NCBI GenBank assembly: GCA_964593235.1
Contig: CAZQGS010000026.1
Span: 22,133 to 86,132, forward strand
Length of the DNA: 64,000 nt
From: an uncultured Gemmatimonadota bacterium
Lineage (GTDB): Bacteria > JAAXHH01
Direction: 5' to 3'
The translations under genes and the position numbers were made by a program. The first letter of the stretch is position 1. Each line of letters starts with the position of its first letter. Of the stretch, positions 3,086 to 39,845 are shown piece by piece. The notes beneath the pieces were generated by a model. The model was given only the letters and a program-made list of their open reading frames with translations, made no database searches and was not told the origin of the DNA.

Positions 3086-5569
3086 ATGGCGGTAGAACAA
3101 CACGATAATATTCAGCCCATTTTTATCGAAGACGAAATGAAAAGTTCTTATCTCGACTTCTCCATGAGCGTAAATCTGTCTCGGGCGATTCCAGATGTAC
3201 GGGACGGATTCAAGCCATCACAACGGCGTATACTTGTGGCGATGCGTGATCTGAACCTTACACCCAGCAGGCCCACCCGTAAATGCGCCAAAATCGTCGG
3301 GCAAACAATAGGTGATTACCATCCACATGGTGATCTTGCTGTTTATGATACCCTAGCTCGGATGGCACAGCCTTTTAGTATGCGCTATCCGATGGTTTTT
3401 GGCCAAGGGAATTTCGGGTCCATAGATGGCGATCCACCAGGAGCTATGCGTTACACTGAATCTAGAATGTCCCGTTTGGCTATTGAAATGATGGAGGATA
3501 TTGACAAAAACACAGTTAATTTCATGCCTAATTATGATGAATCTAAAGATGAGCCTACGGTATTGCCGGGGAAGTTTCCTAATCTTCTTTGTAACGGGTC
3601 TCTTGGTATCGGTGTTGGCATGGCTTCTAGTTTACCTTCTCATAATCTTAGTGAGGTAGTAGATGGAATTGTTGGGGTAATAGAAAATCCTGAGATATCG
3701 ATAGATGAAATCGCTGAGAAAATAAAAGGACCAGATTTTGCTACAGGAGCTATAATTTATGGTCGGAATGCAATACAAGAATACTTCAATACTGGTCGTG
3801 GCAAGGTTAAGGTCCGTGCAAGAACCCAAATCGAAACTCACGAACAAAACGAAAAAGAAACAATCGTCATAACCGAGATTCCTTATAAAGTTAACAAATC
3901 AACTCTGATTGAAAAAATTGCTGATCTAGTTCGTGAAAAGCAAATACTGGGAATTACAGATATCAGAGATGAGTCTGATCGATCTGGCCTCCGAATTGCT
4001 ATAGATGTACGAAGGGATATTCCAGCCAACATTATACTAAATCATCTTTTCAAAATGACTCCTCTCGAAACAACTATTGGGGTCACAATGTTGGCTTTGG
4101 TTGATGGTCGACCTAGGGTATTAAATATTAAGGAATGTATTCAACACTTTATTGACCACCGCCATGAAGTATTAGTCAGGCGTACATCTTTCGACCTTGA
4201 GAAAGCCGAACAACGTGCTCACATTGTTGAAGGTTTAAGGGTGGCTCTGGATAATGTGGATCGTGTTATCGAGATATTGCGAAGTTCTCAGACCGGCGAG
4301 GAAGCTATGACAGTTCTTTTGAGCGAATTTGGATTGTCACGGGCTCAGGTAGAAGCAATTCTAGATATGCGACTTCAGCGATTGACAGGTTTAGAAAGAA
4401 ATAAACTAGAGGACGAATACAATGAACTTGTCGCTCAAATTAGTGATTTCAAGGATATTCTATCTCAGTTGCCCCGCCGGATGCAAATTATAAAAGAAGA
4501 GATGATTGAACTTAAAGAAAAATATGGCGATGATAGAAGAACCGAATTAATCGATATAGAAGGTGATCTAAGTATTGAAGACTTAATAGCAGATGAGGAA
4601 ATGGTTATAACCATTTCTCACGCTGGTTACATCAAACGGATCCCCATGGATACTTATACGAGCCAAAATCGTGGTGGTAAGGGTATTACAGGAATGAAAA
4701 CGCGCGATGAAGATTTTGTAGAGCACCTGTTTTCTGCATCAACTCATTCGTATATACTGTTCTTTACAAACCGTGGTAAATGCTACTGGCTGAAGGTTTG
4801 GGAGATACCAGAAGCTGGACGAACTGCCCGTGGCAAAGCGATGGTGAATTTACTTGAACTTGGTCAGGGGGAAAGTATAGCAGCTTTCCTTCCAATTCGG
4901 ACCTTCGATGACGAACATTATATTATGATGGTTACACGAGGCGGGCTTGTGAAAAAGACCGTTCTTTCGGCTTATGGAAATCCTCGAAAGAACGGGATTG
5001 TTGCTTTGAATATCCTCGAAGGAGATGCACTTATCGAAGCATTATTAACTAGTGGAGATAATGACATTGTTATTGCTAGCCGTAATGGCCAAGCTGTTCG
5101 ATTCCACGAGGCTGATGTTCGGACAATGGGAAGAGGTGCCCAAGGTGTTAGGGGCATCCGGCTTGCAGAGGGAGATAGAGTCGTTGGAATGCTAGCTTCT
5201 GATCGGGATGCTACCTTGCTTTCCGTTACTGAAAATGGATATGGTAAAAGAACAGATATCGAAAATTATCGCTTAACCCGAAGAGCAAGCAAGGGCGTTA
5301 GTAACATCCGAACCAGTGAGCGGAATGGATTGGTCGTATCGATCCATGCAGTTGCTGACAAAGATGAACTTATGATCATTACTATGAATGGTCTGATTAT
5401 CCGTCTTTCAGTCAGTGACTTACGTCCTATAGGTAGAAATACCCAAGGTGTTAAATTGATAAACCTTGGTGAGGGAGACCGAGTAATAGATATTTCTAAG
5501 ATTACGCCCAATGAAGAAGAAAAATCAGAAGACATAGAAAACACTAATTCGTCAGAGCAAGCAGACTAA
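3086..5569 (+). CDS. gyrA: DNA gyrase subunit A
   Basis: 827 aa. N-terminal RAIPDVRDGFKPSQRRIL, QRDR-equivalent region, active-site Tyr context (AMRYTESRM), C-terminal beta-pinwheel repeats, acidic tail. Confidence 0.97.
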   Translation: MAVEQHDNIQPIFIEDEMKSSYLDFSMSVNLSRAIPDVRDGFKPSQRRILVAMRDLNLTPSRPTRKCAKIVGQTIGDYHPHGDLAVYDTLARMAQPFSMRYPMVFGQGNFGSIDGDPPGAMRYTESRMSRLAIEMMEDIDKNTVNFMPNYDESKDEPTVLPGKFPNLLCNGSLGIGVGMASSLPSHNLSEVVDGIVGVIENPEISIDEIAEKIKGPDFATGAIIYGRNAIQEYFNTGRGKVKVRARTQIETHEQNEKETIVITEIPYKVNKSTLIEKIADLVREKQILGITDIRDESDRSGLRIAIDVRRDIPANIILNHLFKMTPLETTIGVTMLALVDGRPRVLNIKECIQHFIDHRHEVLVRRTSFDLEKAEQRAHIVEGLRVALDNVDRVIEILRSSQTGEEAMTVLLSEFGLSRAQVEAILDMRLQRLTGLERNKLEDEYNELVAQISDFKDILSQLPRRMQIIKEEMIELKEKYGDDRRTELIDIEGDLSIEDLIADEEMVITISHAGYIKRIPMDTYTSQNRGGKGITGMKTRDEDFVEHLFSASTHSYILFFTNRGKCYWLKVWEIPEAGRTARGKAMVNLLELGQGESIAAFLPIRTFDDEHYIMMVTRGGLVKKTVLSAYGNPRKNGIVALNILEGDALIEALLTSGDNDIVIASRNGQAVRFHEADVRTMGRGAQGVRGIRLAEGDRVVGMLASDRDATLLSVTENGYGKRTDIENYRLTRRASKGVSNIRTSERNGLVVSIHAVADKDELMIITMNGLIIRLSVSDLRPIGRNTQGVKLINLGEGDRVIDISKITPNEEEKSEDIENTNSSEQAD

Positions 5570-5588
5570 GCGAAATAATAAAAAGCCC

Positions 5589-5616
5589 TTGACACAGTTG
5601 CCTCGAGCAATATATT
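5589..5616 (+). promoter_or_regulatory. sigma70-like promoter for lysW (TTGACA 5589-5594, 16-nt spacer, TATATT 5611-5616)
   Basis: Near-consensus -35/-10 hexamers about 65 nt upstream of the lysW ATG. A GGGAGG Shine-Dalgarno at 5670-5675 precedes the ATG at 5681. Confidence 0.5.
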
Positions 5617-5680
5617 GCGTCCGTTCTTACTCAGGAGACTTTGCAAAACCATCGATGATATAGCATAAAGGGAGGAAATT

Positions 5681-5845
5681 ATGGGAGCCTGCCCGGAATG
5701 TGGTGCTGCGACAAACTTAAATGATGATGTTGTGGAAGGCGAAATAATAGAGTGTGAAGAATGTGGAGCAGAACTTGAGGTAGTAAGTATAAATCCCCTG
5801 GAACTTGCGTTGGCGCCTGAAGAGGAAGAAGACTGGGGAGAATAA
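5681..5845 (+). CDS. lysW: LysW amino-group carrier protein (alpha-aminoadipate/glutamate carrier), 54 aa; below ORF-track size cutoff
   Basis: Translation [54 protein letters not shown]. It has the N-terminal CPxCG...CExCG zinc-ribbon and the acidic tail ending in the diagnostic EDWGE C-terminus, whose terminal Glu is the substrate attachment site in LysW. Strong SD, and lysX/Y/Z/J/K homologues lie immediately downstream. Confidence 0.9.
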
Positions 5846-5899
5846 TTTTTGGTTTGTAATAGATTAACTTCGTTTTCAGAAGGAACAAGAGAGATTGAA

Positions 5900-5977
5900 A
5901 TGAGCAAACGAATGAAACATAAACATGAAAATCATGATTGTGATTTACGTTTGTCCGCTCATCACAGTCCAGGTTAG
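5900..5977 (+). other. Candidate 25-codon leader mini-ORF (MSKRMKHKHENHDCDLRLSAHHSPG) between lysW and lysX
   Basis: ATG preceded by a purine-rich GAGAG. 5 His and 3 Lys codons in 25. Its stop codon lies inside a CCAGGTT/AACCTGG hairpin (5969-5998), just upstream of a strong terminator. Could be chance. Confidence 0.25.
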
Positions 5978-6015
5978 TTCAAGAAACGGAAAACCTGGAT
6001 AAAAAGGAACTGATA

Positions 6016-6066
6016 GGAGCCGCGTTCCTCTTCAGATTTGAGCGAAGAGGCCGGCTCCTTTTTTAT
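6016..6066 (+). terminator. Intrinsic terminator/attenuator hairpin between lysW and lysX
   Basis: GGAGCCG..TTCCTCTTC / GAAGAGG..CGGCTCC form a 14-bp interrupted stem (6016-6058) followed by TTTTTTATGTTGTT. Confidence 0.7.
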
Positions 6067-6094
6067 GTTGTTAATCGGGGATAGGGTCAAATAA

Positions 6095-6946
6095 ATGGAA
6101 ATAGGTATTGTATTGTCAAGGATCCGTAAGGATGAGAAACGACTGATTTCAGAGGCTAGTCATCGAGGATTCGGTGTTACAACTATTGACAACACTCAAC
6201 AGGTATTCAAACTGAATAGTTGTCCTGACAGTTTTGATGTAGTGCTAGAACGTTGTGTAGATCACCATAGGGCGGTTTATGTGCTAAGCTTATTCGACTA
6301 TTGGGGGATACCAACAGTGAACCAACAGTCCGTTGTTGAAACTTACGGAAATCGTTTGTTGACAAATCTGGCATTAAAAGACAATGGAGTACCTTTTCCT
6401 GAAGTCAGGTTAGCTTATACGCCAGGGTCTGCCTTAGAAGCTATGGAAACTATTGGATACCCTATTGTACTGAGGCCGGTTGAGGGATCAGGGAATCAAC
6501 TAGTCTCTCGTATCCAAGAAAAACATACGGCAGCCACTATCCTAGAGCATAAGAGGATTTTGGGTACCTATCATCATTCAATATTTTTTATTCAAAAATA
6601 TATTGAAAGCCCAGGCCATGATATCCGCGCATTCGTTGTTGGTGATCAAACAGTCGCTGCCATATCCGTATTAACCCACCACTGGATAGGATCAATTGCT
6701 GACGGTGGTCTAGTAGAGAACGAACCGGTTACAGAAGAATTAAATCAAATTGCTGTTTCTGCTGTTAAGGCTATTGGTGGGGGCATAGCTGTTGTTGATA
6801 TGATCCGTACAAAAACCCAGTGGTATGTTCAAGAGATGGGCCCACCAACAGGGCTGTCTGAAGCATCTGATGTTACGGGAGTTAATATACCCCAGAAAAT
6901 CATTGAATATGTGGCTAATATTGTGGAACAAGGAGGGAAAGTATAA
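6095..6946 (+). CDS. lysX: LysW--substrate ligase, ATP-grasp RimK/LysX family (LysX or ArgX paralogue 1)
   Basis: 283 aa, RimK-type ATP-grasp fold ([21 protein letters not shown]..., [10 protein letters not shown]). First enzyme gene after lysW. The stop overlaps the start of the next paralogue. Confidence 0.8.
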
Positions 6947-7785
6947 TGAAGATAGGCATGTTACTTTCTATTGTTTCCAAAGAACAGAAAATGTTATTTG
7001 AAGCTGCTAGCAAACGTGGTGTTTGTTTCGAAAGATTGGATGACCGGCGCCTCATATTTGACCTTGAGAATCAAAAGTATAATCATGATGTGATTCTTGA
7101 AAGGTGCATCAATCACTCAAGAGCCCTCTATTCTTTAAGAATACTTAATGCTAGCGGCATTAAAACTGTTAATTCGTATGATGTAGCGCGTATCTGTGGA
7201 AACAAATTTTTGACAACGATGGCATTGGTTAATAACAATGTTCCGACACCCAAGGCTTGTGTTGCTTTTACGGCGGAGTCTGCCCTTGATGCTATAGAAT
7301 CTATGGGATACCCAGTTGTGCTCAAACCACCCATAGGTTCCTGGGGTCGCCTAATCGCGCGGATTAATGACCGTAATGCAGCAGAATCGGTGCTCGAACA
7401 TAAGGAGACATTAGGATCTTTTCATCATTCAGTGTTTTACATTCAGGAGTACGTTGATAAACCAGGACGGGATATACGTTCCTTCGTAATTGACGGGCAG
7501 ACTATTTGTGCTATTTATCGTTATTCCGATCATTGGAAAACTAATACTGCTCTGGGAGGAACAGTAGCTGCTTGCCCAGTAGATGGAGATGTAGGAAAAT
7601 TGTCTATTCAGGCTGCCGAGGCAGTGGGCGGGGATGTTGTAGCTGTAGACCTGCTGGAATCTCCAGATGGTATAGTTGTCAACGAAGTTAATTATACAAT
7701 GGAATTTCGGAACAGTATACAACCTACCGGGGTAGATATTCCGGGACGAATTATCGATTATTTGATAAAGGTAGCTCAATCATGA
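6946..7785 (+). CDS. Second ATP-grasp LysX/ArgX-family ligase (paralogue 2)
   Basis: 279 aa, colinear with the previous protein ([21 protein letters not shown]..., [10 protein letters not shown]). Tandem duplicate. Two ligases with a single Z/Y/J/K set resembles the LysX+ArgX architecture. Confidence 0.8.
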
Positions 7786-8825
7786 TTAAAGTCTCTATCG
7801 TTGGTGCTTCTGGATACGGCGGCGGAGAGTTGTTACGTCTTCTTCTTGCTCACTCTGAAATAGAGATTCAGCAGGTTACTTCTGAATCGTTAGTTGGTAA
7901 ACCTGTTGGACGTTCTCATCCAAATCTACGTAGGCTTACTGACCTAAAATTCCATGCTATGGATGATTTAAAACCCTGTGACGTTATTTTTCTATGCCTA
8001 CCGCATGGGGAAGCTATGAAACAATGGGACTCGCTGTCTGGTCTTGCTGATCGTGTTATTGATCTAAGTGCCGATTTTCGCCTTCGCAATCCATTGGACT
8101 ACCCAATTTGGTACGGGCATGAACATACCAAGCCGGGAGTATTGAATCACTTTGTGTATGGTTTAGCCGAATTATACCGAGAAGAAATTAGGAATGCTGA
8201 ATTTGTGGCCTGTACGGGATGCTTAGCTGCTACAGCCATCCTATCTTTGGCGCCTTTGGTCAAGACTGGTAGTATCGATCCTTCAAGGTTATTTTTGGAA
8301 GGGAAAATTGGTTCGTCAGCAGGTGGTAATAAATCAGATCACTCCACTCACCATCCCGAGCGGAGTGGCTCTGTACGATCATTCAAGCCAACAGGCCATA
8401 GGCACACAGCGGAAGTAATACAGGAGTTAACTGTCGATGGGCAGGTTCCCCAGGTCCATTTTTCTGCGACAGCAATAGAAATGGTGCGAGGAATCCTGAT
8501 GACAAGCCATGTTTTTGTAGATAAGGATTTATCCGAAAGAGAAATTTGGGAGATTTACAGAGAAGTTTACGAAAACGAGCCTTTTATTCGTATTATTAAA
8601 GAACGGAATGGTATTTACCGATATCCCGATCCAAAAATCCTCTCAGGTACTAATTTTTGTGATATTGGATTTGAACGAGATAAGCACAGTGATCGTTTAG
8701 TAGTCCTAGGTGCCTTAGATAACCTAGTTAAAGGAGCTGCTGGACAGGCTGTTCAGGCTATTAATATAATGCATGGATGGGATGAGCAGACAGGTTTACA
8801 ATTTCCTGGGTTGCACCCTATATAG
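7782..8825 (+). CDS. lysY: [LysW]-aminoadipyl/glutamyl-phosphate reductase (ArgC/LysY family)
   Basis: 347 aa. [24 protein letters not shown](P)-binding N-terminus. A Cys is present in the region ([17 protein letters not shown]) where ArgC/LysY carry their catalytic Cys. ArgC-like C-terminus. Overlaps the upstream gene by 4 nt. Confidence 0.85.
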
Positions 8826-8831: not shown

Positions 8832-10100
8832 ATGATGAACTACAAAGCACCTAGAGGCACCTACGATATCTTGCCCGAAGATCAATCCTATTGGCGTTAC
8901 GTGATCGAAACAACACATCGTGTTTGCCGGCTTTATGGTTACGAGCAAATAGATGTTCCAATATTCGAGCAGACGAACCTCTTCAAAAGGAGCGTTGGTG
9001 AATCCACAGATATTGTAGAAAAAGAGATGTATACCTTTGTTGATCGTAGTGATGAGAGTATGACTTTGCGTCCTGAATTAACTGCGGGCATCTGCCGAGC
9101 CTATGTTGAACGTAAACTTCATGGGCGGCCACAACCGTTAAAGTTTTTTACGATTGGCCCGGCGTTTAGGTATGAACGTCCTCAGGCTGGTCGTTATCGT
9201 CAGTTCTATCAGCTAGACGTTGAGGCTTTAGGTAGCCAGGATCCAGCTATAGACATAGAGATTATGCAAGTGGCATGGCAGATTTACGAGGAAATTGGTT
9301 TAGGTGGATTATCTTTCCAAGTTAATAGTACCGGATGTCCCGAATGCCGTCCAGGATATCTTAGCCTTCTTAAAGAATGGTACGAATCCCGTATATCAGG
9401 TCTTTGTCAAGACTGCCAGCGACGCTACGGACAGAATCTACTCAGATTGTTAGATTGTAAAAATGAAGCCTGCCGAGAAATATCTGATAGAGCTCCGAAG
9501 ATTACCGCTGCATTATGTGGCGACTGTGGCAATCATTTTGAAGAATTGAGATCTTATTTGGATATATTGAAACGTCCGTATGAGGTTAATCATCGGCTTG
9601 TTCGAGGATTAGACTACTATACAAAGACGGTATTTGAAGTCTGGGCCTCTGGCATTGGTGCTCAAAATGCGGTAAGTGGAGGTGGACGTTATGACGGCTT
9701 AGTTAAAGTGATAGGCGGTCCCGAAACCCCAGCAATAGGTTTTGCTTCGGGGATAGAACGTATTATCCTCGCAATGAAACAAGAAGGTATTATTCCTCCG
9801 GAACTGGCTAACCCAAAAGTTTTTATCGCTTACATTGGAACGGCTGCAAAATCAGCTGCTGTCCTTTTAGTGCAGGAACTTCGAAGTGGAGGAATCAGTG
9901 TGGCTGCTCTTTGGGATGATCGTAGTCTAAAATCTCAAATGAAGCAGGCAGATCGGGTTGGAGCAACATACACTGTAATCATAGGTAATAATGAAATAAC
10001 AAGTGGCAAATATATATTGCGAAGGATGGGAGAAAGCGCCCAGATTGTTTTAAGTCCTTCGGAAATTTTGCCAAGGTTAAAAGATGGAGATTTCTCATGA
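8832..10100 (+). CDS. hisS: Histidyl-tRNA synthetase (class II), embedded in the lys operon
   Basis: 422 aa. HisRS signature PRGTYDILPED near the N-terminus, class II motifs (TLRPELTAG, FRYERPQAGRYRQFYQ), HisRS-specific Cys-rich insertion, C-terminal anticodon-binding domain. Its stop overlaps the lysZ start (ATGA). Confidence 0.85.
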   Translation: MMNYKAPRGTYDILPEDQSYWRYVIETTHRVCRLYGYEQIDVPIFEQTNLFKRSVGESTDIVEKEMYTFVDRSDESMTLRPELTAGICRAYVERKLHGRPQPLKFFTIGPAFRYERPQAGRYRQFYQLDVEALGSQDPAIDIEIMQVAWQIYEEIGLGGLSFQVNSTGCPECRPGYLSLLKEWYESRISGLCQDCQRRYGQNLLRLLDCKNEACREISDRAPKITAALCGDCGNHFEELRSYLDILKRPYEVNHRLVRGLDYYTKTVFEVWASGIGAQNAVSGGGRYDGLVKVIGGPETPAIGFASGIERIILAMKQEGIIPPELANPKVFIAYIGTAAKSAAVLLVQELRSGGISVAALWDDRSLKSQMKQADRVGATYTVIIGNNEITSGKYILRRMGESAQIVLSPSEILPRLKDGDFS

Positions 10101-10894
10101 TCGTGATCAAAACAGGAGGGAGTAGAGGTATTAATATTGATTACGTTCTTGCGGATCTTGCTTTTCAAACAGAGCCACTTGTGTTTTTGCATGGGGCGTC
10201 TGACGAATTAAATCAAATATCCGAGCGGCTAGGTAAACCTCCTCGAATGGTCACATCGCCTTCTGGGTACACCAGTAGGTACACCGACTCAGGAACCCTT
10301 GATATTTTTAATATGGTATACTGTGGTAAAATAAACACTCGTATCGTTGAAAAACTTCACCAACTGGGGGTTAATGCTGTTGGACTAAGTGGTGTTGATG
10401 GTAGACTTCTTGAGGGTAAAAGAAAATCTACTGTCCGTATCATTGAGGAAGGGAAGAAGAAACTGCTTAGAAATGATTTTACGGGGCGTGTTGAAAAGGC
10501 GAACGTAAATCTTCTTACACTTCTTCTTGGCCAAGGTTATCTACCAGTCGTCAGTCCTCCGGCTATTAGTTATGAAGGTGAAATTATCAATGTCGACGGC
10601 GATAGGGCTGCTGCCGTGATAGCAGAGGGACTCGGAGCTGATAGGTTAATTATACTCTCTAATACACCAGGTTTTCTGAAAGATGCGGATGCCGAAGAGA
10701 CCTTAATACCACGGCTTAACCGAGATGATATTGACGATGTGATAAGGAAATATGCAAGAGGCCGGATGAAGAAGAAACTACTGGGTGCTCGGGAAGCCCT
10801 AGAGGCAGGTGTGGGTACGGTGATTCTTGGTGATGGTCGTATACCCAATCCAGTTACATTAGCTTTGCAGGGTAAGGGCACCGTAATTACGTAG
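10097..10894 (+). CDS. lysZ: [LysW]-aminoadipate/glutamate kinase (ArgB/LysZ amino-acid kinase family)
   Basis: 265 aa. MIVIKTGGS opening and GASDEL..., VVSP..NVDGDRAAAVIAEGLGADRLIILSNTPG AAK-family motifs. Confidence 0.85.
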   Translation: MIVIKTGGSRGINIDYVLADLAFQTEPLVFLHGASDELNQISERLGKPPRMVTSPSGYTSRYTDSGTLDIFNMVYCGKINTRIVEKLHQLGVNAVGLSGVDGRLLEGKRKSTVRIIEEGKKKLLRNDFTGRVEKANVNLLTLLLGQGYLPVVSPPAISYEGEIINVDGDRAAAVIAEGLGADRLIILSNTPGFLKDADAEETLIPRLNRDDIDDVIRKYARGRMKKKLLGAREALEAGVGTVILGDGRIPNPVTLALQGKGTVIT

Positions 10895-10956: not shown

Positions 10957-12150
10957 ATGATACAGTACAAGGAGATGGAAGATAAAGTCTCTATGGGAAT
11001 TTTGCCAAAGAGAGACGTCGTAATTGTCCGTGGGAAAGGTACCAGATTATGGGATACCGAAGGCAAGGAGTATATTGATTGTGTAGGAGGACATGGGACA
11101 GCGAATATCGGTCATAATCATCCGGTTGTTGTAGAGGCGTTGGTTCGTCAGGCGGAGCAACTTATGATATGTCCCGATATGTTTTATAATAATGTAAGGG
11201 CCAAATTAGTAACAACATTAGCCCAAGTAGCTCCGGCAGGACTAGACCGTCTTTATTTGTGTAACTCAGGGACAGAAGCGGTGGAAGCAGCATTGAAATT
11301 CGCTCGTGTGGCAACTAAGAGAACAGGAGTGATCGCAGCGCAAAGAGGTTTTCACGGGCGGACTTTTGGAGCTCTAAGTGCAACCTGGAATCCTAAATAT
11401 CGAAAGCCATTTCAACCTCTTGTACCAGGTTTCTCTCACGTAAAGTATAACGACATGCAGGCGATTGATTCTGCTATAGATGATGGCACAGCCGCCGTTA
11501 TTTTAGAAGTAGTTCAGGGAGAAGGTGGTGTGCGCCTAGGTACCGAAAGCTACTTAAAGAAAGTGGAAGCCCTTTGCCGAAACCGGGGTTCATTATTGAT
11601 ATTAGATGAAGTGCAAACAGGTTTTGGCAGAACAGGTACTATGTTTGCCTGCCAGCACTACGATATACAGCCAGATATTATCTGCGTTGCTAAAGCAATG
11701 GCAGGTGGATTGCCAGTAGGAGCGGTCCTCTGTTCTGATTTGGTTAAAGAAATTCCAACGATGTCTCACGGTAACACCTTTGGTGGTAGCCCTATTGTCT
11801 GCGCGGCTGCTTTGGGTACGTTGAGTGTACTACAAAACTCAGGGATAATCCAAAATGCCCGAGAGATGGGGATCTATTTTAGAGAACGACTTGAAACACT
11901 AGACCTCAGGATTATCCGAGAGATTCGAGGTCTAGGCCTTATGATTGGACTAGAACTGAAAAGCCGAGTTTCACCGGTATTGAAAGGTCTTATGGACCAT
12001 GGTATATTAGCTTTGCCAGCAGGCAACACAGTACTACGTTTCTTGCCACCTCTATCAATAACAGCAGATGACATTGATCAGGTCGTAGATGCTCTAAAAA
12101 TAGTACTGAAGCCACTGGATAAAATTTCAACAGAAGAATCCACAGAATAA
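10957..12150 (+). CDS. lysJ: Class III PLP aminotransferase (ArgD/LysJ family)
   Basis: 397 aa. GTEAVEAALKFAR, DEVQTGFGRTG, PLP-Lys region (ICVAKAMAGGLP), SHGNTFGGSP. Confidence 0.85.
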   Translation: MIQYKEMEDKVSMGILPKRDVVIVRGKGTRLWDTEGKEYIDCVGGHGTANIGHNHPVVVEALVRQAEQLMICPDMFYNNVRAKLVTTLAQVAPAGLDRLYLCNSGTEAVEAALKFARVATKRTGVIAAQRGFHGRTFGALSATWNPKYRKPFQPLVPGFSHVKYNDMQAIDSAIDDGTAAVILEVVQGEGGVRLGTESYLKKVEALCRNRGSLLILDEVQTGFGRTGTMFACQHYDIQPDIICVAKAMAGGLPVGAVLCSDLVKEIPTMSHGNTFGGSPIVCAAALGTLSVLQNSGIIQNAREMGIYFRERLETLDLRIIREIRGLGLMIGLELKSRVSPVLKGLMDHGILALPAGNTVLRFLPPLSITADDIDQVVDALKIVLKPLDKISTEESTE

Positions 12151-12202: not shown

Positions 12203-13249
12203 ATGAGTGTTCAATGTGACGACCTGGACTTATTGCGTGGCCTAGTCGATCATTACAGTCCTTCTAGGCAAGAAGAAGATGCAGTATCTTTTCTAGTCGA
12301 ATCGATGGAACAGAGAGGTATAAATTCTTATATTGATGGGGCGGGAAATGCAGTTGGGGAAGTGGGTGATGGTTCCCCACATATTGCTCTCGTCGGGCAT
12401 ATAGATACTGTGAAGGGGATTATTCCCGTCCGAGAGAAATCTGGTCGTCTTTACGGTCGTGGAACAGTAGATGCTAAGGGTCCCCTCGCCACATTTGTGG
12501 CGGCCGTGTCTCGGTTTACTAAACTCGATCAAGGTAGGATTACAGTTGTAGGTGCTGTGGAAGAAGAGTGTCCGACATCACGAGGTGCCCGATATCTTGT
12601 TAATCAAATGAAACCAGATCATGTATTTATTGGTGAACCTAGCGGTTGGGATAGTATCACTATAGGATATAAGGGTATCGTTGGTTTCAATTTCAAGTTA
12701 AAACAATCTAATGCTCATTTTGCTGGCAATAATTTACGTTCGGGAGACAAAGCAATAACATTTTATAACAATCTTTTATCCTACCTTAACCAACATGAAA
12801 TCAAGAGTGAATTTGGATCTCCTCGACTTGAACTAAGGAGAATTAATACTCTTGATGAAGGGTTAACAGAAAATGTAGAGGCCTATTTTTCAGTGCGCAT
12901 TCCTCCTGGATATGGAGTGGAAAATCTTATTAACTTTATAGGAGTTCAGTCAGGAGATGCTGAAATAGAATGTGATCAGAAACTAGAGGGTATTATTGCG
13001 AAAAAAAATACTCCGCTAGTCCGGGCTTTGTTGCAAGGCATTCGTCAAGAGGGTGGGCAACCAACTTTCAAGAAAAAGACTGGCACTTCAGATATGTGTG
13101 TCATCGGTCCGGAATGGAAATGCCCCATCGTAGCATATGGTCCAGGAGATTCTAGTTTAGATCATACACCAGACGAACATATAATACTCGATGATTATCT
13201 TCGATCTATCCAAGTAATGACAAATGCGTTAAAATCCCTAATATTATGA
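12203..13249 (+). CDS. lysK: [LysW]-lysine/ornithine hydrolase, M20 (ArgE/DapE/LysK) family
   Basis: 348 aa. HIALVGHIDTV metal-binding motif, GRGTVDAKGPLA, M20 dimerisation-domain insertion. Last gene of the colinear block. Confidence 0.8.
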   Translation: MSVQCDDLDLLRGLVDHYSPSRQEEDAVSFLVESMEQRGINSYIDGAGNAVGEVGDGSPHIALVGHIDTVKGIIPVREKSGRLYGRGTVDAKGPLATFVAAVSRFTKLDQGRITVVGAVEEECPTSRGARYLVNQMKPDHVFIGEPSGWDSITIGYKGIVGFNFKLKQSNAHFAGNNLRSGDKAITFYNNLLSYLNQHEIKSEFGSPRLELRRINTLDEGLTENVEAYFSVRIPPGYGVENLINFIGVQSGDAEIECDQKLEGIIAKKNTPLVRALLQGIRQEGGQPTFKKKTGTSDMCVIGPEWKCPIVAYGPGDSSLDHTPDEHIILDDYLRSIQVMTNALKSLIL

Positions 13250-15734: not shown

Positions 15735-16196
15735 ATGAGGAAAAAACAGAAAAAATTTTTAGTTGGTTTTGGGGTTGTAATAGTAGCGATAGGATACCTG
15801 ATCTATACTGGGGTAACCGATGCTACGATGTATTACTTAACTGCGAGTGAACTAGACACGGCTATAACAGAAGGGAATGTTGACTACGGCGAAAATATGC
15901 GGTTGCACGGTAGGGTATTAACTGGATCTATCGAAAAGGGTGAGGTGGGTTCCTTGCAAATCAGCTTTATAGCACATGAGGGGGGCACACAGATCCCTAT
16001 CGTCTACACTGGGGTGGTTCCTGACACGTTTAGAGACGATTCTGAAGTGGTTTTGGAGGGTGGTTACGGGCAGAATGGTACATTTACAGCTCACACATTG
16101 TTTGCCAAGTGCCCATCTAAGTATGAAAGTGACCAAGGATATGGCCAATATGAGAACCTCAAACCAATTCCGCCAGAATCCTCGACTAAGTCTTGA
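15735..16196 (+). CDS. ccmE: Cytochrome c-type biogenesis haem chaperone CcmE, variant with Cys-type CXXXY haem-binding motif
   Basis: 153 aa. N-terminal TM anchor, OB-fold core (VVPDTFRDDSEVVLEG). The haem-binding segment is LFAKCPSKYES (Cys126/Tyr130; Cys codon at 16110-16112) in place of canonical AKHDE-x-Y. ccmABCD lies downstream. Confidence 0.8.
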   Translation: MRKKQKKFLVGFGVVIVAIGYLIYTGVTDATMYYLTASELDTAITEGNVDYGENMRLHGRVLTGSIEKGEVGSLQISFIAHEGGTQIPIVYTGVVPDTFRDDSEVVLEGGYGQNGTFTAHTLFAKCPSKYESDQGYGQYENLKPIPPESSTKS

Positions 16197-16248
16197 ACAG
16201 ATTAGCTCAGAATTACGGTGTTGTTTACTAGAGGAGTAACATCTGGCT

Positions 16249-16848
16249 ATGACATTGTTCGCTTGTGGACTGCTTACATTGGGCGTCCTTGCTTTTATGA
16301 TCGTTCCAATGTTGGAGGGATCATCTCAACGTCGTCCTTGGGCTGTTCGATCTCGGCAGGATGATTTGCTTAAAAAGAAAGATTTTATCTATGCGTCCAT
16401 TCGTGAACTAGACATTGATTTTAATATGGGTAAACTGGCTGCTGAAGATCACAAGTTACTACAGCAAGAGTATATTAATGAGGCATCGGAAGTGCTAGAT
16501 GAACTGGACCAATTTGTTGAGATTGATATGCCCATTGAGGAAAAAATAGAAAAAGAAGTGTTAGATCTCCGAAATAGGAACCCCAAAAGTCCTATCAAAT
16601 CAGACAATAAAGAACCAACACTGGACCATATTGATGGATTAGATGAAACGGAAACTAGTAGTACAGGGAAGGTTGTTCTGTCTGAAGGTCAGCTTTTATG
16701 TAGACATTGTGGCAAACATAACGAGGAATATTCCAATTTCTGTGTCGAATGTGGAACTTCCTTAGAAACATACACTTGTGGAGGTTGTGGAAAGGAAAAT
16801 CAACCTTCAGCTAATTTCTGTTCAGAGTGCGGAGAGAAATTGGGTTGA
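16249..16848 (+). CDS. Membrane-anchored protein with C-terminal double zinc ribbon (CxxC-x16-CxxC-x9-CxxC-x15-CxxC); unknown function
   Basis: 199 aa. N-terminal TM helix (LLTLGVLAFMIVPML), coiled/acidic middle, C-terminal CRHCGK...CVECG...CGGCGK...CSECG. Lies in the ccmE-ccmA interval. Confidence 0.5.
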   Translation: MTLFACGLLTLGVLAFMIVPMLEGSSQRRPWAVRSRQDDLLKKKDFIYASIRELDIDFNMGKLAAEDHKLLQQEYINEASEVLDELDQFVEIDMPIEEKIEKEVLDLRNRNPKSPIKSDNKEPTLDHIDGLDETETSSTGKVVLSEGQLLCRHCGKHNEEYSNFCVECGTSLETYTCGGCGKENQPSANFCSECGEKLG

Positions 16849-16858
16849 TGGAGATCTT

Positions 16859-18025
16859 ATGAAGTGCCAATGGTATTCTAGCCCTTCGGGGCTTTTTATT
16901 TATTATATCAATATTCTGGTTTGCATTTTCTGTTGGAGTGGGGTGACAAAAGCTCAAGAAACGGGAAGCATTGACCTTGTAGTTTTAAATAAAACTACTG
17001 GCCTGCCAATAGCAGGGCACGAGCTGACATTGTTACGTCACAATAGTGAAGAGGAACAAGAAGAGACTCTTTTAAAAGTTGTAACAGATAGTAACGGACA
17101 GTATAAATTTGCTGGCCTACCAGCCGATGAATCCCACTACGTCATCGTTACTCGTTACCTCGAAATACCTTACCTTACAGAGCATATTACATTGGGCCCC
17201 GGGGAACAGCAAACAATAGTACTCGAAGTTTACGATATTACAACAAACGAAAATGAGTTAATTCATAGTGCTATTCATTTGGTAATAGAGACAACTCCAG
17301 ATATTCTTAATATTATGGAAATTATTGTTTTGGATAACAAAAGTAATATGACTTTTGCTCCACCACCCAATTCAGGCTTGGGCCTTATCTACTCTCTTCC
17401 TTCTGCCGCATTTGGTCTCCAACCTATGGTCCAGGGTCTTAGGCATACTGATCGGGGACTTTTATTTTCAGCGCCAGTAAAACCTGGCCCTGAACGAATC
17501 ATTTATACCTACAGCCTTGATAGGACTTCAGTAGACCACAAATTTGTAAGACAGATGGATTACAATATTAGTAGGGTCCAGGTATTGGTTTCCCCAAGTA
17601 CCGAGATTGTAACAGCTGTAAATCTGACCAACGATGGAGAACAACGAATTGGTGATAAGGATTATCTTTTACTCTCGAATCGTGTTGGCCTCCAGAAAGG
17701 GATGTCAGTAGAGGTTGCATTCCCTTATATATTGACTTGGCAGGTAGCTCTGAAGTGGGGAATGCTTGGGTTTGTTATATTAATTTTAATTGGTGGCATC
17801 TTTGTTGGGATTCGAATTAAGCCAGAAAAGTTGAAAAATTTTGATAACACAACCGGTGTCGAGCCAAAAAATAAGCGAAAATACACCGCGATCCTCCATG
17901 CTATAGCTAATTTGGATGATCAAAAAGACGCTGGAATATTAGACGCTAGGACATATAGAAGTCGTAGAGATGGTTTGCAAAAAAGGGCCTTAAGGCTTCA
18001 TCAAAATGGAAGTAAAAGTGAATAA
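16859..18025 (+). CDS. Secreted/membrane protein with CarboxypepD_reg-like beta-sandwich and C-terminal TM anchor; unknown function
   Basis: The ORF track starts at 16778 (overlapping the previous gene by 70 nt). The ATG at 16859 gives a signal-peptide-like N-terminus (MKCQWYSSPSGLFIYYINILVCIFCWSGVTKAQ) and no overlap. Contains the ...VVTDSNGQYKFAGLP motif typical of CarboxypepD_reg domains and a TM helix near the C-terminus (MLGFVILILIGGIFVGI). Its 3' end overlaps ccmA by 20 nt. Confidence 0.5.
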   Translation: MKCQWYSSPSGLFIYYINILVCIFCWSGVTKAQETGSIDLVVLNKTTGLPIAGHELTLLRHNSEEEQEETLLKVVTDSNGQYKFAGLPADESHYVIVTRYLEIPYLTEHITLGPGEQQTIVLEVYDITTNENELIHSAIHLVIETTPDILNIMEIIVLDNKSNMTFAPPPNSGLGLIYSLPSAAFGLQPMVQGLRHTDRGLLFSAPVKPGPERIIYTYSLDRTSVDHKFVRQMDYNISRVQVLVSPSTEIVTAVNLTNDGEQRIGDKDYLLLSNRVGLQKGMSVEVAFPYILTWQVALKWGMLGFVILILIGGIFVGIRIKPEKLKNFDNTTGVEPKNKRKYTAILHAIANLDDQKDAGILDARTYRSRRDGLQKRALRLHQNGSKSE

Positions 18026-18728
18026 TCAATTTACTCCTAGTATAAGATTACAAAACCTAACTAAGGTATACGGTCGTTTTAGGGCATTACGTGGAGTAAA
18101 TCTGGAGATTGCACCAGGAACCTTTTTGGCTCTTTTTGGTCCCAATGGCGCTGGGAAGTCCACCTTACTTAATATGATCGCTGGCCTTATTCAGCCATCT
18201 CGTGGAGCGTTGTTCTTGGATGATATCAATGTTACCCATGGTCGAGACGAGTGCTTAGGAAGCCAAGTTGGAGTATTATCATATGATACTTATCTATACG
18301 ATGAATTGACCGTTAATGAAAATCTCCAATTTTATGGGAAATTATACGACATTGTAGATCCTAGTAAAAAGATAGAAGAAATGTTAGTTGCGGTAGGAAT
18401 GTCTAGCAGAAGTGAAAGCCGGGTTTATACTCTTTCTCACGGAATGCGGCAGCGAGTAGCTATAGCAAGAGCACTTCTGCATGATCCAGATATTTTGTTA
18501 CTGGATGAACCTTATTCTGGGTTGGACCAAGATGCCCTAGTCACCTTAAAGGCAATCCTGACAGCTTATAATAAGACAGTTATTTTAGTAACTCATGACT
18601 TGGATCGGGGACTTGAATTAGCTGATCGAGTCGTTATTTTAAACCGTGGATATGTCGTTTTTGATACCCCCAAGAACGGTTTGACCAGTGATCAGATTAA
18701 ATGTTTCTATAAGGAGCATTCTGTTTAA
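18006..18728 (+). CDS. ccmA: Haem exporter ABC ATPase CcmA
   Basis: 240 aa. Walker A GPNGAGKST, LSHGMRQR signature, Walker B ILLLDEP. Followed by ccmB/ccmC. Confidence 0.85.
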   Translation: MEVKVNNQFTPSIRLQNLTKVYGRFRALRGVNLEIAPGTFLALFGPNGAGKSTLLNMIAGLIQPSRGALFLDDINVTHGRDECLGSQVGVLSYDTYLYDELTVNENLQFYGKLYDIVDPSKKIEEMLVAVGMSSRSESRVYTLSHGMRQRVAIARALLHDPDILLLDEPYSGLDQDALVTLKAILTAYNKTVILVTHDLDRGLELADRVVILNRGYVVFDTPKNGLTSDQIKCFYKEHSV

Positions 18729-18750
18729 GCCTATAAAGAGAACAATCTGA

Positions 18751-19431
18751 ATGAGATATTTACTTGCTAAATCATGGCAAATATACCGAAAAGATATGAT
18801 AGTAGAATACCGAACGCGCGAGCGTGTTGTGACTATGTTTGTTTTTTCGTTAATTGTAATGGTCATTTTTAATTTTGCTTTTAACATTGGGTCCAACTTT
18901 ATAGAAAGGGTTGTACCTGGAATGATCTGGGTCGCATTTTCTTTTGCAGGAATGCTGTGTGCGAGTCGATGTTTCGCTTCTGAAAAAGATCGAGCTACTT
19001 TTGATGGCCTACTCCTTGCTCCCATAGATAGAGGATCTATATTTCTTGGTAAATTATTTGGTAATATTACCCTTATTAGTTTAGTCCAATTGGCAGTACT
19101 TCCCCTATTTATTATTTTTTTCAACATGACAATCTTCCCTTATTTAACTAAACTGTTAGTTATATTTTTCTTGGGAACAATTGGATTTTCATCAATTGCC
19201 ACGCTGTTTGCAGCTGTGGCTATCAATACAAGAATGCGGGATGTTATGTTGCCAGTTTTACTGCTACCTGTGGCATCACCTATTTTAATTGCCTTGGTAG
19301 AGACAACAAGGACAACTTTTGAGGGTGGAGACTGGCAGGATATGACAAACTGGATAAGATTACTTTCGGTATTCACAGTCGTTTTTTTGGTAGCGTCGGT
19401 CATGTTGTTCGAGTATATCCTGGAGGAATGA
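18751..19431 (+). CDS. ccmB: Haem exporter membrane protein CcmB
   Basis: 226 aa, six predicted TM helices. CcmB-like ...FASEKDRATFDGLLLAPIDRGSIFLGK... segment. Confidence 0.8.
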   Translation: MRYLLAKSWQIYRKDMIVEYRTRERVVTMFVFSLIVMVIFNFAFNIGSNFIERVVPGMIWVAFSFAGMLCASRCFASEKDRATFDGLLLAPIDRGSIFLGKLFGNITLISLVQLAVLPLFIIFFNMTIFPYLTKLLVIFFLGTIGFSSIATLFAAVAINTRMRDVMLPVLLLPVASPILIALVETTRTTFEGGDWQDMTNWIRLLSVFTVVFLVASVMLFEYILEE

Positions 19432-19434
19432 ACC

Positions 19435-20157
19435 ATGGCAGAATTAACAACTCGTTTGCGCATAACACCGTTCGGAGTTATTTGTCTCGTTGGATTAATT
19501 ATATCGTTGTACCTTTCATTAATTTGGGCACCCAGGGAGCGGGTTATGGGGGACGTGCAGCGGATAATGTATTTCCATGTTGCTACAGCATGGATTGCAG
19601 AGTTAGCTTTTCTTTTAGTGGGTATTTCGAGTATTATTTATCTGTGGCTTAGAGAACGTAAATGGGATATTGTGGCTTATAGTGCTGCCGAAGTGGGCTT
19701 TGTATTTTGCTGTTTCGTAATGATAACTGGACCAATCTGGGGGAAACCAGTCTGGGGGACTTGGTGGACATGGGATCCACGTCTCACGTTTTCAATGATA
19801 TTGTGGCTTATATATGTAGGTTACTTAATGCTTCGGGTTTATGGTGACGATATCCCTCAGGTGAAAACCTTTCTTGCAGTACTTGGCATATTAGGTACTT
19901 TAGACATCCCGTTTATTCATTTCGCTACAATGTGGTGGCGGGGGTTACATCCCGATTCTCTAGTTATGAGCGAGGAAGGATTGGGGGCAGGGATGGAAGT
20001 TGATATGCGCATTGCTCTGGCTGTGTCGGCTATTGTTTTTACCTTGTTTTTTTTCTATCTTATGGGACGTCGAATGGCCTTGGAACGTTTACGAGATGAA
20101 ACCGAAGATCTGCGAGATCGTTTAGAATATATGAATAATGATAATATCAGAAATTAA
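19435..20157 (+). CDS. ccmC: Haem lyase/exporter component CcmC
   Basis: 240 aa. Tryptophan-rich WWD motif GKPVWGTWWTWDPRLT and conserved His in flanking loops. Confidence 0.85.
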   Translation: MAELTTRLRITPFGVICLVGLIISLYLSLIWAPRERVMGDVQRIMYFHVATAWIAELAFLLVGISSIIYLWLRERKWDIVAYSAAEVGFVFCCFVMITGPIWGKPVWGTWWTWDPRLTFSMILWLIYVGYLMLRVYGDDIPQVKTFLAVLGILGTLDIPFIHFATMWWRGLHPDSLVMSEEGLGAGMEVDMRIALAVSAIVFTLFFFYLMGRRMALERLRDETEDLRDRLEYMNNDNIRN

Positions 20158-33861: not shown

Positions 33862-34476
33862 ATGGCCTATACTTCTCCTGGAGAAACCAGGAATAAAATC
33901 TACAGTTTTGTAAGGGAGCAGATCCTAAATGGAACACCACCCACAACTCGCGAAGTTCAATATGCTTTTGGATTTCGAGCAGTTCAGTCAGCTCGACAGC
34001 ATTTAGAGAAGTTGGTACTTGAGGGTAAGCTCGCTAAAGTGGATGGAATGTCACGAGCCTACCGATTACCGGAGTTTGGAAAAGTTAGTCCTCCCCAGTT
34101 AATCCCTATGTTAGGCCGTGTCCAAGCTGGAGAATTAACAGAGGCTATGGAGGATCCTTCAGAATATATAATGGTACAAACTCGTTTTGATGACAGTGAG
34201 CTTTTTGCACTGACGGTAGAGGGAGAAAGTATGCTAAATGCAGGTATTATGCCCGGAGATATGGTTGTTGTGCGCCGACAACCTACTGCTAGTTCGGGAG
34301 ACATCGTAGTAGCATTGATTGGTGAGGAAGCAACAGTCAAGCGGTACCGAGAACGAAATAGTAGTATTGAATTACATCCGGAGAATGACACTTTTTATCC
34401 AATAATTCCCGAGGAACTAGGGACATCATTTTCAATTTTGGGTAAGGTTATTGAGGTCCGACGGTGTGTAGAATAA
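33862..34476 (+). CDS. lexA: LexA repressor (S24 peptidase)
   Basis: 204 aa. wHTH N-domain, Ala-Gly cleavage site (VQAGE), catalytic Ser (GESM) and Lys (VKRY) in the C-domain. Confidence 0.9.
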   Translation: MAYTSPGETRNKIYSFVREQILNGTPPTTREVQYAFGFRAVQSARQHLEKLVLEGKLAKVDGMSRAYRLPEFGKVSPPQLIPMLGRVQAGELTEAMEDPSEYIMVQTRFDDSELFALTVEGESMLNAGIMPGDMVVVRRQPTASSGDIVVALIGEEATVKRYRERNSSIELHPENDTFYPIIPEELGTSFSILGKVIEVRRCVE

Positions 34477-34495
34477 AGTTAATATAGAAAGAAAA

Positions 34496-34515
34496 ATCGA
34501 AAAGTGTTCTTCGAT
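34496..34515 (+). promoter_or_regulatory. Inverted repeat ATCGAA-N8-TTCGAT upstream of imuA (candidate operator)
   Basis: Perfect 6-bp arms with 8-nt spacer (AAGTGTTC), 29 nt upstream of the imuA ATG, inside the short lexA-imuA intergenic region. Confidence 0.3.
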
Positions 34516-34543
34516 AGGTCAAAGAAATATCTAAGGAGTTTTC

Positions 34544-35179
34544 ATGTCAGGTATAAGTGTTCTGGATCTGCAGAATCACGATCTCTATTTTAAGCGAATT
34601 CCACGTGTAGATAAGAAAAAGAAACCGATATGGTCTCGGAAAGAACTGGCTGGACGTCTCTGCGAGTTGTCCTCTATCTATGGTACGGCACAGTTAACAG
34701 CTGCATTCCAATTGGTTTTAGACGCACAATTTGAAGGCGAACCAACCGCTTGGATCACAACGACGTTAGATACATTTTTTGCTCCTGATGCAGCAGAGGG
34801 TGGTGTGGACCTAGATGCTCTTGTAGTCATCCATGTCCCCAATACGGCAGCCGCAACGCGTGCGGCTGATCGGATTCTACAATCCGGGGGATTTGGATTG
34901 GTAGTAATGGATCTTCATGGTGATTCCAGAATTCCAATACCGATGCAAATGCGCTTAGTTCAGCAAGTTAGGGAATACAATACAGCCTTTTTATGCCTAA
35001 CTATCAAGTCCAAAGATATGCCTTCATTGGGACCGATGGTTTCTCTTAGAGGTCAGACATCTTGTCGTCGTCTGACGGTTGGACGTTTTCAATATGAAAT
35101 CGAAGTACTTAAGGACAGAAGTTATGGGCCAGGCTGGCATTATGCCGAAATCTGCCGTGGTCCGGACGGCTTGCATTAA
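34544..35179 (+). CDS. imuA: ImuA-like (SulA/RecA-fold) mutagenesis cassette protein
   Basis: 211 aa, degenerate RecA-like core (FGLVVMDLHG...), placed between lexA and a Y-family polymerase paralogue plus dnaE2. Confidence 0.65.
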   Translation: MSGISVLDLQNHDLYFKRIPRVDKKKKPIWSRKELAGRLCELSSIYGTAQLTAAFQLVLDAQFEGEPTAWITTTLDTFFAPDAAEGGVDLDALVVIHVPNTAAATRAADRILQSGGFGLVVMDLHGDSRIPIPMQMRLVQQVREYNTAFLCLTIKSKDMPSLGPMVSLRGQTSCRRLTVGRFQYEIEVLKDRSYGPGWHYAEICRGPDGLH

Positions 35180-36608: not shown

Positions 36609-36641
36609 TTTCGAATAGAGTGTTTAACATTTATAATCATT

Positions 36642-39600: not shown

Positions 39601-39845
39601 AAAAACCGAAAACAGCTCAAGGCGTTACGTTTATGACATTAGAGGACGAAACAGGTTTTGTAAATCTAGTGATTTGGAAACAGGTTTTCGAAAATAATAT
39701 CACACTGGCAAAAAAACTGTATTATATGGGAGTTACTGGTAAACTTCAGGTAGGAGAAGGCCTTGTTCATTTAATTGTAAAGTCAATTTGGAACCCAGCA
39801 CTGGATGATCAACTTCTCTATTTACAAAGTAGAGATTTTCGTTAA
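36642..39845 (+). CDS. dnaE2: Error-prone DNA polymerase III alpha paralogue DnaE2 (ImuC)
   Basis: 1067 aa. PHP domain N-terminus, Pol IIIalpha palm/fingers (GRGSAANSAVCFSLGIT, DIDLDIEHDRR, GFLIGHLPIYELVPIE), OB domain at the C-terminus. No tau/beta-binding tail, and a typical DnaE2 length. Confidence 0.9.
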   Translation: MNDNVTGVRSLSNSNSMVSPAKTYTPLWCKSNYSFLEGASHPEELVDSCKNLGITSLSLTDRNGVYGIIRAHVRARDLDIHLIVGSQVSLQNGSDILLLAQNQEGYSQLCQLLTNGQLRSHKGECRVSWEEVCHHNPGLIALWIGESYPIKSTLSENYNSTFILEQLKSNFEDRLYVLLARHHHAEEPLREIQLRELANKLRVPTVAAVEVLYHVPERRRLQDVLTCIREGVTLPEAGQLIRPNDQYFMKSMDDMKRLFADDLVSLERTREISERCNFHLGEIHYRYPLERLPKGKTSIQYLEERTFEGAAQRLGDKFETQIPQLRKELTLIRELEYEGYFLTMFEIVEYCRRQNIICQGRGSAANSAVCFSLGITSVNPTQVNLLFERFLSRERAEPPDIDLDIEHDRREEVIQYVYRKYGRSHAAMVANVVRYRYRSAIREVGKVLGIPATSLDQLAKQVSHGNWNGTLFRNTGLDPENPIIRHLNILVREIQHFPRYLSIHPGGFLIGHLPIYELVPIENATKNRRTVIQWDKEDVENAGLFKVDLLGLGALNLLHRGFDLLSRYRQKELSLATIPRDDIATFDLICRSETVGVFQIESRAQMAMLRRMKPRSYYDLVVQISIVRPGPITGGMVHPYLRRRNREEYVTYPHESLIPVLKKTLGVPLFQEQVMQLAMVAADYTPGEADQLRRDMSAWRFSGRIDRHRGRLISRMVKKGIEKKFAKQVFEQIRGFGEYGFPESHAASFAHIAYATAYMRCHYPAEFICALLNAQPMGFYTPATIVNDARIHGIEIRSVDIRHSRWECTLEKIEDTSGKANIKNSNVGTKHKIFAVRVGLRYIRGFGKKDWDKLELAMSKAPFRDIQDIVQRSGINKGKLESLAVAGAFNCFGKERRYSIWDILGTKEYYQSPLLLKMDNPLPKFKSLGDLETICWDHQTSGHSVQGHLLKPRRSELTAQGIPTARELNRMSDGDTVKYVGLVISRQKPKTAQGVTFMTLEDETGFVNLVIWKQVFENNITLAKKLYYMGVTGKLQVGEGLVHLIVKSIWNPALDDQLLYLQSRDFR

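Follow-up and report, generated by a model that had tools for sequence, protein, structure and literature searches.

The gene cluster described here has its closest known counterparts in the lysXYZJK system of Thermus, in the LysX/ArgX system of Sulfolobus and Sulfurisphaera (PDB 3VPB) and in the ArgW/ArgX system of haloarchaea. The Thermus system is bacterial and specific for alpha-aminoadipate (AAA), and its ligase LysX carries the specificity signature F-I-T-NS. The five residues of this signature (positions 182, 192, 203, 258 and 259 of Thermus LysX) have been defined experimentally; F-I-T-NS stands for LysX, I-Y-V-GF for ArgX and Y-I-T-NA for bifunctional enzymes (PMC12998189). The wild-type Thermus enzyme has trace activity only on glutamate, and Thermus LysZ and LysY accept LysW-Glu intermediates too (PMC12998189). 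In Sulfolobus and Sulfurisphaera a single carrier gene is followed by two ligase paralogues of the RimK family, LysX and ArgX, the latter with GSWGR, all ATP-grasp motifs and I-Y-V-GF in place. In haloarchaea such as Natrinema gari, the carrier ArgW possesses the same zinc ribbon and the same EDWGE end and is devoted to arginine only, lysine being made via the DAP pathway; specificity is set by the ligase, and the GSWGR loop of the partner ligase is the element that recognizes EDWGE (PMC10433800).

The locus analyzed in this work resides in a 64-kb stretch of DNA from an uncultured Gemmatimonadota bacterium, termed the window throughout, and comprises, in this order on the forward strand, lysW, a lysX-like gene (X1), lysX (X2), lysY, hisS, lysZ, lysJ and lysK (Table 1). 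With Thermus it shares the F-I-T-NS type of ligase and a carrier of 54 amino acids with four cysteines and an identical EDWGE end (T. thermophilus LysW; PDB 3WWL, 3WWN, 5EIN, 5EIO). Unlike in Thermus, lysW has its own conserved promoter, a structured spacer of 250 nt with a terminator lies between it and the ligase genes, and a degenerate ligase paralogue as well as hisS have been added to the operon. The arrangement of one carrier gene before two RimK-family ligase paralogues is that of Sulfolobus and Sulfurisphaera; however, while ArgX of these organisms retains its motifs, X1 has lost GSWGR, the conserved Lys and E-x-N. Carrier fold and EDWGE tail are likewise those of the haloarchaeal system, which differs in serving arginine synthesis alone and in a ligase signature of the type L/V-M-A-A-L, seen in six haloarchaeal loci.

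Table 1. Features of the lysW locus in window coordinates, with the evidence for each assignment.
Feature	Position	Strand	Description and evidence
Promoter of lysW	5589-5616	+	Sigma-70 type, TTGACA-16 nt-TATATT with A-tract upstream; 11 of 12 consensus positions
Ribosome-binding site of lysW	5670-5675	+	GGGAGG, 5 nt before the lysW ATG; read from the sequence
lysW	5681-5845	+	Amino-group carrier protein, 54 aa, zinc ribbon and EDWGE tail; TIGR01206, PF21344, LysW structures
Candidate leader ORF	5900-5977	+	25 codons, MSKRMKHKHENHDCDLRLSAHHSPG plus stop (beginning MSKRMKHKH); length fixed in the clade
Hairpin P1	5900-5962	+	Approximately 26 bp, G-U pairs counted; 5' and 3' arms lie within the leader ORF; folding
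Hairpin P2	5967-6000	+	Leader stop codon in the 5' arm; in every relative despite differing sequence
Intrinsic-terminator-like hairpin T	6015-6064	+	Hairpin (6015-6059) plus six U; folding, sequence conserved in the clade
X1	6095-6946	+	Divergent LysX paralogue, 283 aa; TIGR02144 243.7 bits, under the cut-off of 275.6
X2 (lysX)	6946-7785	+	Canonical [LysW]-aminoadipate ligase; TIGR02144 332 bits, cut-off 275.6
lysY	7782-8825	+	ArgC-type reductase; TIGR01850 389.6 bits, operon position conserved
hisS	8832-10100	+	Histidyl-tRNA synthetase; TIGR00442 478 bits, cut-off 286.75
lysZ	10097-10894	+	[LysW]-aminoadipate kinase; NF010659 380 bits, cut-off 223
lysJ	10957-12150	+	Aminotransferase; best NCBIfam model NF042418 (LysJ) 457 bits, below cut-off; TIGR00707 449 bits, above cut-off
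lysK	12203-13249	+	[LysW]-lysine hydrolase; NF003367 383 bits, cut-off 363

The original prediction had placed an unlisted lysW gene in the interval between gyrA and lysX. A frame consisting of an ATG start, 54 codons and a stop codon can indeed be read from the window at precisely this place. Its product has a calculated mass of 5736 Da, in rough agreement with the 5.8 kDa claimed, a pI of 4.05 and 17 acidic residues in the absence of any basic one; the two cysteine pairs (CPEC, residues 4-7; CEEC, residues 25-28) and the EDWGE C-terminus are present as described. A search with a LysW profile had been named beforehand as a check, and the protein scored above the curated cut-offs of both TIGR01206 (lysW; 69.4 bits, cut-off 53.2, E 1.8e-19) and the Pfam family PF21344 (Zn_ribbon_LysW; 73.3 bits, cut-off 27, E 1.2e-20). 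E-values of this magnitude rule out a chance match. The archaeal LysW/ArgW model NF041070 gave 66.5 bits and thus remained under its cut-off of 75, as is expected for a bacterial-type sequence. The anticipated correspondence with LysW homologues was found as well: a full-length alignment was obtained with the crystallized LysW proteins from Thermus thermophilus (3wwl; E 2.7e-15), Thermococcus kodakarensis (5k2m_E) and Sulfurisphaera tokodaii (3vpb_E), in which the four cysteines and the EDWGE end fall on the same positions in all three and the last five residues are identical.

It is also true that lysW is absent from the ORF list on which the original prediction was based. The omission is an artefact of the length cut-off, usually 60 aa; the gene is listed once the minimum falls below 54 aa and is seen at 40 aa. 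Two longer ORFs overlap lysW on the minus strand (5566-5907, 113 aa; 5679-5888, 69 aa), neither of which has a significant family match, and an ORF list with a 60-aa threshold would contain these antisense frames in place of lysW. In public data the identical protein has already been called on 78 contigs (NCBI, JGI, ENA, Logan and Tara data). Among 5.8 billion proteins searched, 151 homologues were retrieved, which all contain PF21344 and are called LysW wherever the source gives a name; close homologues bear this name at NCBI and JGI. The lysW gene at this locus is a genuine, ordinary and catalogued gene and not a new one, and public gene callers did not overlook it.

Upstream of lysW, the strong promoter and the GGGAGG ribosome-binding site that had been proposed are both present (Table 1). 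The near-consensus promoter hexamers, their spacing and the A-tract are kept in 17 of 17 aligned related loci and in five further ones, which makes 22 loci with distant lineages included. In four related loci, among others, the 5' untranslated region of lysW is longer, at about 110 nt, and has inverted repeats rich in G and C, features that are missing from the window (5575-5680).

All five enzymes that act as partners of LysW (LysX, LysZ, LysY, LysJ and LysK) are encoded downstream of lysW in one operon, and LysZ and LysK exceed the cut-offs of [LysW]-specific equivalog models of NCBIfam. A complete hisS gene is inserted between lysY and lysZ, and its 3' end overlaps the lysZ start codon. The complete order from lysW to lysK, with gyrA upstream, recurs in all related loci of sufficient length to reveal it. 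On the 5' side, lysW is preceded by dciA, gyrB and gyrA, and by dnaN and recF too in longer public contigs, which assigns the operon to the origin-proximal core genome. The related metagenome-assembled genomes are labelled Latescibacterota, Gemmatimonadota (Gemmatimonadetes) or Zixibacteria, and many of them stem from sponge and coral metagenomes. Taken on sequence evidence, the frame at 5681-5845 very probably is lysW, encoding the carrier of the AAA pathway, equipped with its own strong promoter and forming the first gene of an eight-gene operon.

Two statements of the original prediction about this context are true in part. The gap between gyrA and lysX does hold lysW, but the next gene is the degenerate paralogue X1 and not the canonical lysX, and the interval between lysW and X1 is not empty. 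Furthermore, it had been put forward that the operon would be misannotated as an acetyl-dependent arginine operon if lysW were missed. This applies to lysY and lysJ only, which would receive the names of arginine enzymes (argC and the argD family, respectively), whereas current NCBIfam models give lysZ, lysK and lysX their correct names with no recourse to lysW.

Two further clusters in the window may be mentioned. At 33862-39845, four genes lie in succession, namely lexA, an unassigned ORF, a gene resembling Y-family polymerases (IMS family) and a second gene for the alpha subunit of DNA polymerase III, in the layout of an imuA-imuB-dnaE2 SOS mutagenesis cassette. A cluster for cytochrome c maturation at 15735-20157 comprises ccmE, an ABC ATPase gene, ccmB and a ccmC-like gene and is interrupted by a gene for a double-zinc-ribbon protein (16249-16848) and by an ORF of 415 aa without family match.

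The spacer between lysW and X1 (5846-6094) has a fold z-score of -4.75 relative to shuffled sequence and contains a short candidate ORF, two hairpins (P1 and P2) and the intrinsic-terminator-like hairpin T. The latter was missed by a simple terminator scanner because of its internal loop and was recovered by folding. The ORF has exactly 25 codons in each of the clade's 15 distinct spacers; the stop codon varies between TAG, TAA and TGA while its position is fixed, and ORFs in the other frames of these spacers are not conserved. Three Lys codons and four to five His codons are found among the 25, not arranged in a tandem run, and a Shine-Dalgarno-like GGA(A) lies upstream. The ORF has no match in Pfam, and public protein sets do not contain a call for it. 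A distant lineage (L107), the spacer of which cannot be aligned with the others, contains a 25-codon ORF as well (MNRRNTFKHKHAWNKIRSSVRTVHS plus stop), with an identical AAACATAAACATG island (K-H-K-H), and there too the ORF is enclosed by a hairpin that is followed by a terminator.

The P1 region is 89% identical to that of relatives as compared to 76% for the lysW coding sequence, and third codon positions are identical in 91% of cases in P1 versus 48% in lysW. Since identity is this high even at third positions, P1 appears to be constrained at the RNA level beyond any coding constraint. Covariation is uninformative for P1 and T because both are almost invariant; in P2 two base pairs have changed on both sides. 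Sequence-unrelated terminator-like hairpins occupy the place of T in five diverged lineages, and in three diverged lineages a terminator is kept and the K-H-K-H ORF is absent. No promoter-like site was found between T and X1 in the window, and the enzyme genes from X1 to lysK therefore seem to depend on read-through. Neither the whole window nor six related loci gave a match at gathering score to any Rfam family, lysine riboswitch and T-box included, and relaxing the threshold to E-values of up to 10 for positions 5500-6200 returned matches at chance level only. A scan of metagenomes with a pattern for the leader core retrieved just three loci, one of them a duplicate; further instances came from look-ups of exact proteins.

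Several other readings of single elements in such spacers were considered and discarded. P1 is not a DNA operator palindrome, as it includes several G-U pairs, which can form only in the RNA of the plus strand. An ORF of nine codons within the first hairpin of one related locus was rejected as a leader because its ATG is missing in the sister locus. The window itself contains another mini-ORF of nine codons (MLLIGDRVK followed by a stop codon; 6065-6094), which starts at the end of the U-run of T and stops directly before the ATG of X1; it is not conserved in relatives.

Transcription attenuators that work with a leader peptide are known from the his, trp and pheST operons of E. coli, and a leader with lysine codons has reportedly been found for the lysine cluster of Thermus. 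The spacer studied here resembles these attenuators in that a short candidate ORF with codons cognate to the products of the operon is followed by hairpins and an intrinsic terminator before the structural genes, and its layout of three hairpins is reminiscent of the his leader. It departs from them in its location inside the operon after the first gene, in the alternation of Lys and His codons instead of a run, in the enclosure of both arms of the first hairpin within the ORF, in the lack of a detectable antiterminator pairing and in not belonging to an Rfam family.

Lysine is the presumed product of the operon and HisRS is one of its proteins, so that the Lys and His codons of the ORF suggest a leader-peptide attenuator. 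The spacer may thus represent a regulatory leader, composed of a translated Lys/His-rich ORF of 25 codons, two hairpins and a terminator, that limits read-through into the enzyme genes, an interpretation to which we assign a probability just short of even. Read-through could be limited by ribosome-mediated attenuation in response to lysine and histidine supply or, alternatively, by the setting of a high carrier-to-enzyme ratio. The stable fold, the ORF with its fixed stop position and the GGA(A) upstream are in favor of such a leader, and so are the retention of the K-H-K-H codons in the otherwise unalignable spacer of L107, the presence of a terminator at this position in every lineage, the lack of an internal promoter before X1 and the stronger conservation of the leader relative to lysW. 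Against it stands that no antiterminator mutually exclusive with T was found: when folding was repeated with a ribosome masking the K/H codons or the stop codon, the minimum-energy fold was still the terminator in 15 of 15 sequences. Inspection of the sequences by eye gave weak alternative pairings of 5-8 bp only, and pairings of the his type (B:C and D:E) drawn by hand amounted to only 4-8 bp and were rejected as evidence. The leader reading also gains no support from covariation and is weakened by the three diverged lineages that have a terminator and no K-H-K-H ORF.

That the terminator forms in every folding scenario is in line with T being a constitutive partial terminator that ends most lysW transcripts and leaves the carrier in excess over the enzymes, the ORF then being a by-product of P1 or encoding a separate micro-protein. 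An excess of carrier would make sense because the carrier is needed in substrate-like amounts. The very strong lysW promoter agrees with such an arrangement, as do terminator-like or very stable hairpins downstream of lysW, which occur across many unrelated phyla as well as in lineages lacking K-H-K-H. We regard this explanation as a realistic possibility, if somewhat below an even chance. It leaves unexplained why the ORF has a fixed length of 25 codons with varying stop codons, why K-H-K-H has been retained in a spacer that cannot otherwise be aligned and why four to five of the 25 residues are His in an operon that contains hisS. The conserved placement of hisS across the clade may connect to the His-rich leader ORF.

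Long spacers between lysW and lysX are also found in other phyla; in seven such loci they contain very stable hairpins, some of which precede T-runs. These hairpins hint that uncoupling of carrier and enzyme expression may be a recurrent theme.

The gene following the spacer, X1, is intact and conserved, and its product differs from LysX in several conserved motifs. GSWGR is changed to GSGNQ, VLKP to VLRP, QEYV to QKYI, TNTARGG to GSIADGG and NEVN to QEMG. The same losses are encountered in all X1 orthologues (GSGNQ or GPEDQ for GSWGR; QK(Y/H)(I/V) for QEYV; G(S/T)IAxGG for TNTARGG). To judge from ATP-grasp enzymes in general, the residues replaced in this way would be catalytically essential. 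GSWGR and TNTARGG represent the upper and the lower ATP-binding loop, respectively, both of which are lost in X1; the former is the counterpart of the upper ATP-binding loop in RimK (PMC10375531). X1 retains the DIR-motif arginine through which TK0278 makes contact with the last residue of LysW (PMC10375531). Proteins of the X1 type form a discrete group with at least 59% identity, followed by a drop to 49% for canonical LysX. Some X1 orthologues are named LysW-aminoadipate ligase by JGI. X1 probably is a non-catalytic derivative of LysX that is maintained as a conserved gene and not a canonical LysW ligase.

An assignment of X1 as ArgX was rejected. Its signature is F-I-I-EA instead of I-Y-V-GF, GSWGR, the conserved Lys and E-x-N are lost, and the protein remains under the cut-off of TIGR02144; the second ligase copy of this locus is, for these reasons, not an equivalent of ArgX. 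Every catalytic motif has been kept in the second ligase copies of further bacterial phyla, the signatures of which include I-I-T-GF. A catalytically intact second ligase is present in twelve bacterial lysW loci of our collection, with signatures that are ArgX-like or novel (I-I-T-GF, F-S-T-GL, L-S-V-GL, Y-A-A-A-S and others). These intact copies suggest that LysW-dependent synthesis of ornithine and arginine may be widespread in bacteria. Two loci from Thermomicrobiales contain a degenerate ligase copy directly after lysW as well.

X2 is of a different kind. It aligns with T. thermophilus LysX (3vpd) with 290 bits, and alignment to this structure as well as a MAFFT alignment reveal an intact GSWGR loop, intact ATP-grasp motifs and the signature F-I-T-NS. 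In most close relatives the signature of X2 is F-V-T-NS, with V for I. Lysine is the likely product of the operon: the F-I-T-NS signature backs AAA-dependent synthesis, and we infer lysine rather than ornithine as the compound formed. Genes for homocitrate synthase, homoaconitase and homoisocitrate dehydrogenase are not present in the 64-kb window, nor are genes of the DAP pathway or arg genes.

By analogy with the characterized Thermus system, the zinc-ribbon domain of LysW would serve as the handle that is bound by the enzymes of the pathway. At the expense of ATP, X2 (LysX) would attach AAA via its amino group to the gamma-carboxyl group of the C-terminal residue Glu54 of LysW, the EDWGE tail being recognized by the GSWGR loop of the ligase. 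The tethered AAA would then be phosphorylated by LysZ, reduced by LysY and transaminated by LysJ, before LysK frees lysine and regenerates LysW.

The zinc ribbon and the EDWGE end had been presented as the defining features of the carrier. They do define the LysW/ArgW family, small proteins of some 50-60 aa in which two Cys pairs form the zinc ribbon at the N-terminus, but do not tell lysine from arginine, as haloarchaeal ArgW shares both and serves arginine only (PMC10433800). The carrier could therefore be of the ArgW type or bifunctional, with glutamate being channelled towards ornithine and arginine instead of, or besides, aminoadipate towards lysine. Such a role would be compatible with the acceptance of LysW-Glu intermediates by Thermus LysZ and LysY (PMC12998189), with the two ligase genes after lysW that recall LysX plus ArgX of Sulfolobus, with the aliphatic residue at signature position 203 of X1, as in ArgX, and with the fact that acetyl-dependent arg genes are not seen in the window. 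We nevertheless consider it unlikely. X2 is the sole ligase of the locus with intact catalytic and LysW-recognition motifs, and its signature is the AAA-specific one, for which the Thermus enzyme shows no more than traces of glutamate activity (PMC12998189). X1 lacks both GSWGR and the ArgX signature, whereas the presumed ArgX copies of other bacterial loci retain all ATP-grasp motifs. Finally, the model matching lysZ best is that of the aminoadipate-specific kinase, with 380 bits as opposed to 204 bits for the bifunctional model.

Carriers dedicated to secondary-metabolite pathways exist in the form of the LysW homologues (AmCP) of Streptomyces, but such a function in place of primary lysine synthesis is hardly credible for a cluster that consists of five canonical lys genes plus hisS only, lies in the core genome beside gyrB and gyrA and close to dnaN, has an order conserved across the whole clade, and has no tailoring or non-ribosomal genes nearby.

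A more far-reaching scheme involves the two less orthodox elements of the operon. In this marine clade associated with sponges and corals, the spacer could constitute an undescribed type of leader, in which a translated and self-folded K-H-K-H peptide region of 25 codons together with a terminator couples the expression of the lysine enzymes and of HisRS to the charging of Lys-tRNA and His-tRNA and leaves the carrier unregulated, while X1 could be a new non-catalytic, LysX-derived subunit or a regulator of the LysW pathway. In its entirety we judge this scheme to be speculative and rather unlikely to hold.

The assignment of lysW fixes the operon as carrier-protein-dependent and matters mainly for annotation. 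As such it is a routine result, since standard profile models and public gene calls already capture the gene. Together with the signature of the ligase, it points to an uncultured marine lineage in which lysine is made via the AAA pathway. The degenerate X1 and the spacer element were less expected than lysW and would matter more if confirmed. Either of them, a dual Lys/His leader located after the carrier gene or a conserved LysX paralogue devoid of LysW recognition and ATP binding, would, if true, add a regulatory or structural layer to a pathway that has so far been studied only in Thermus and archaea.
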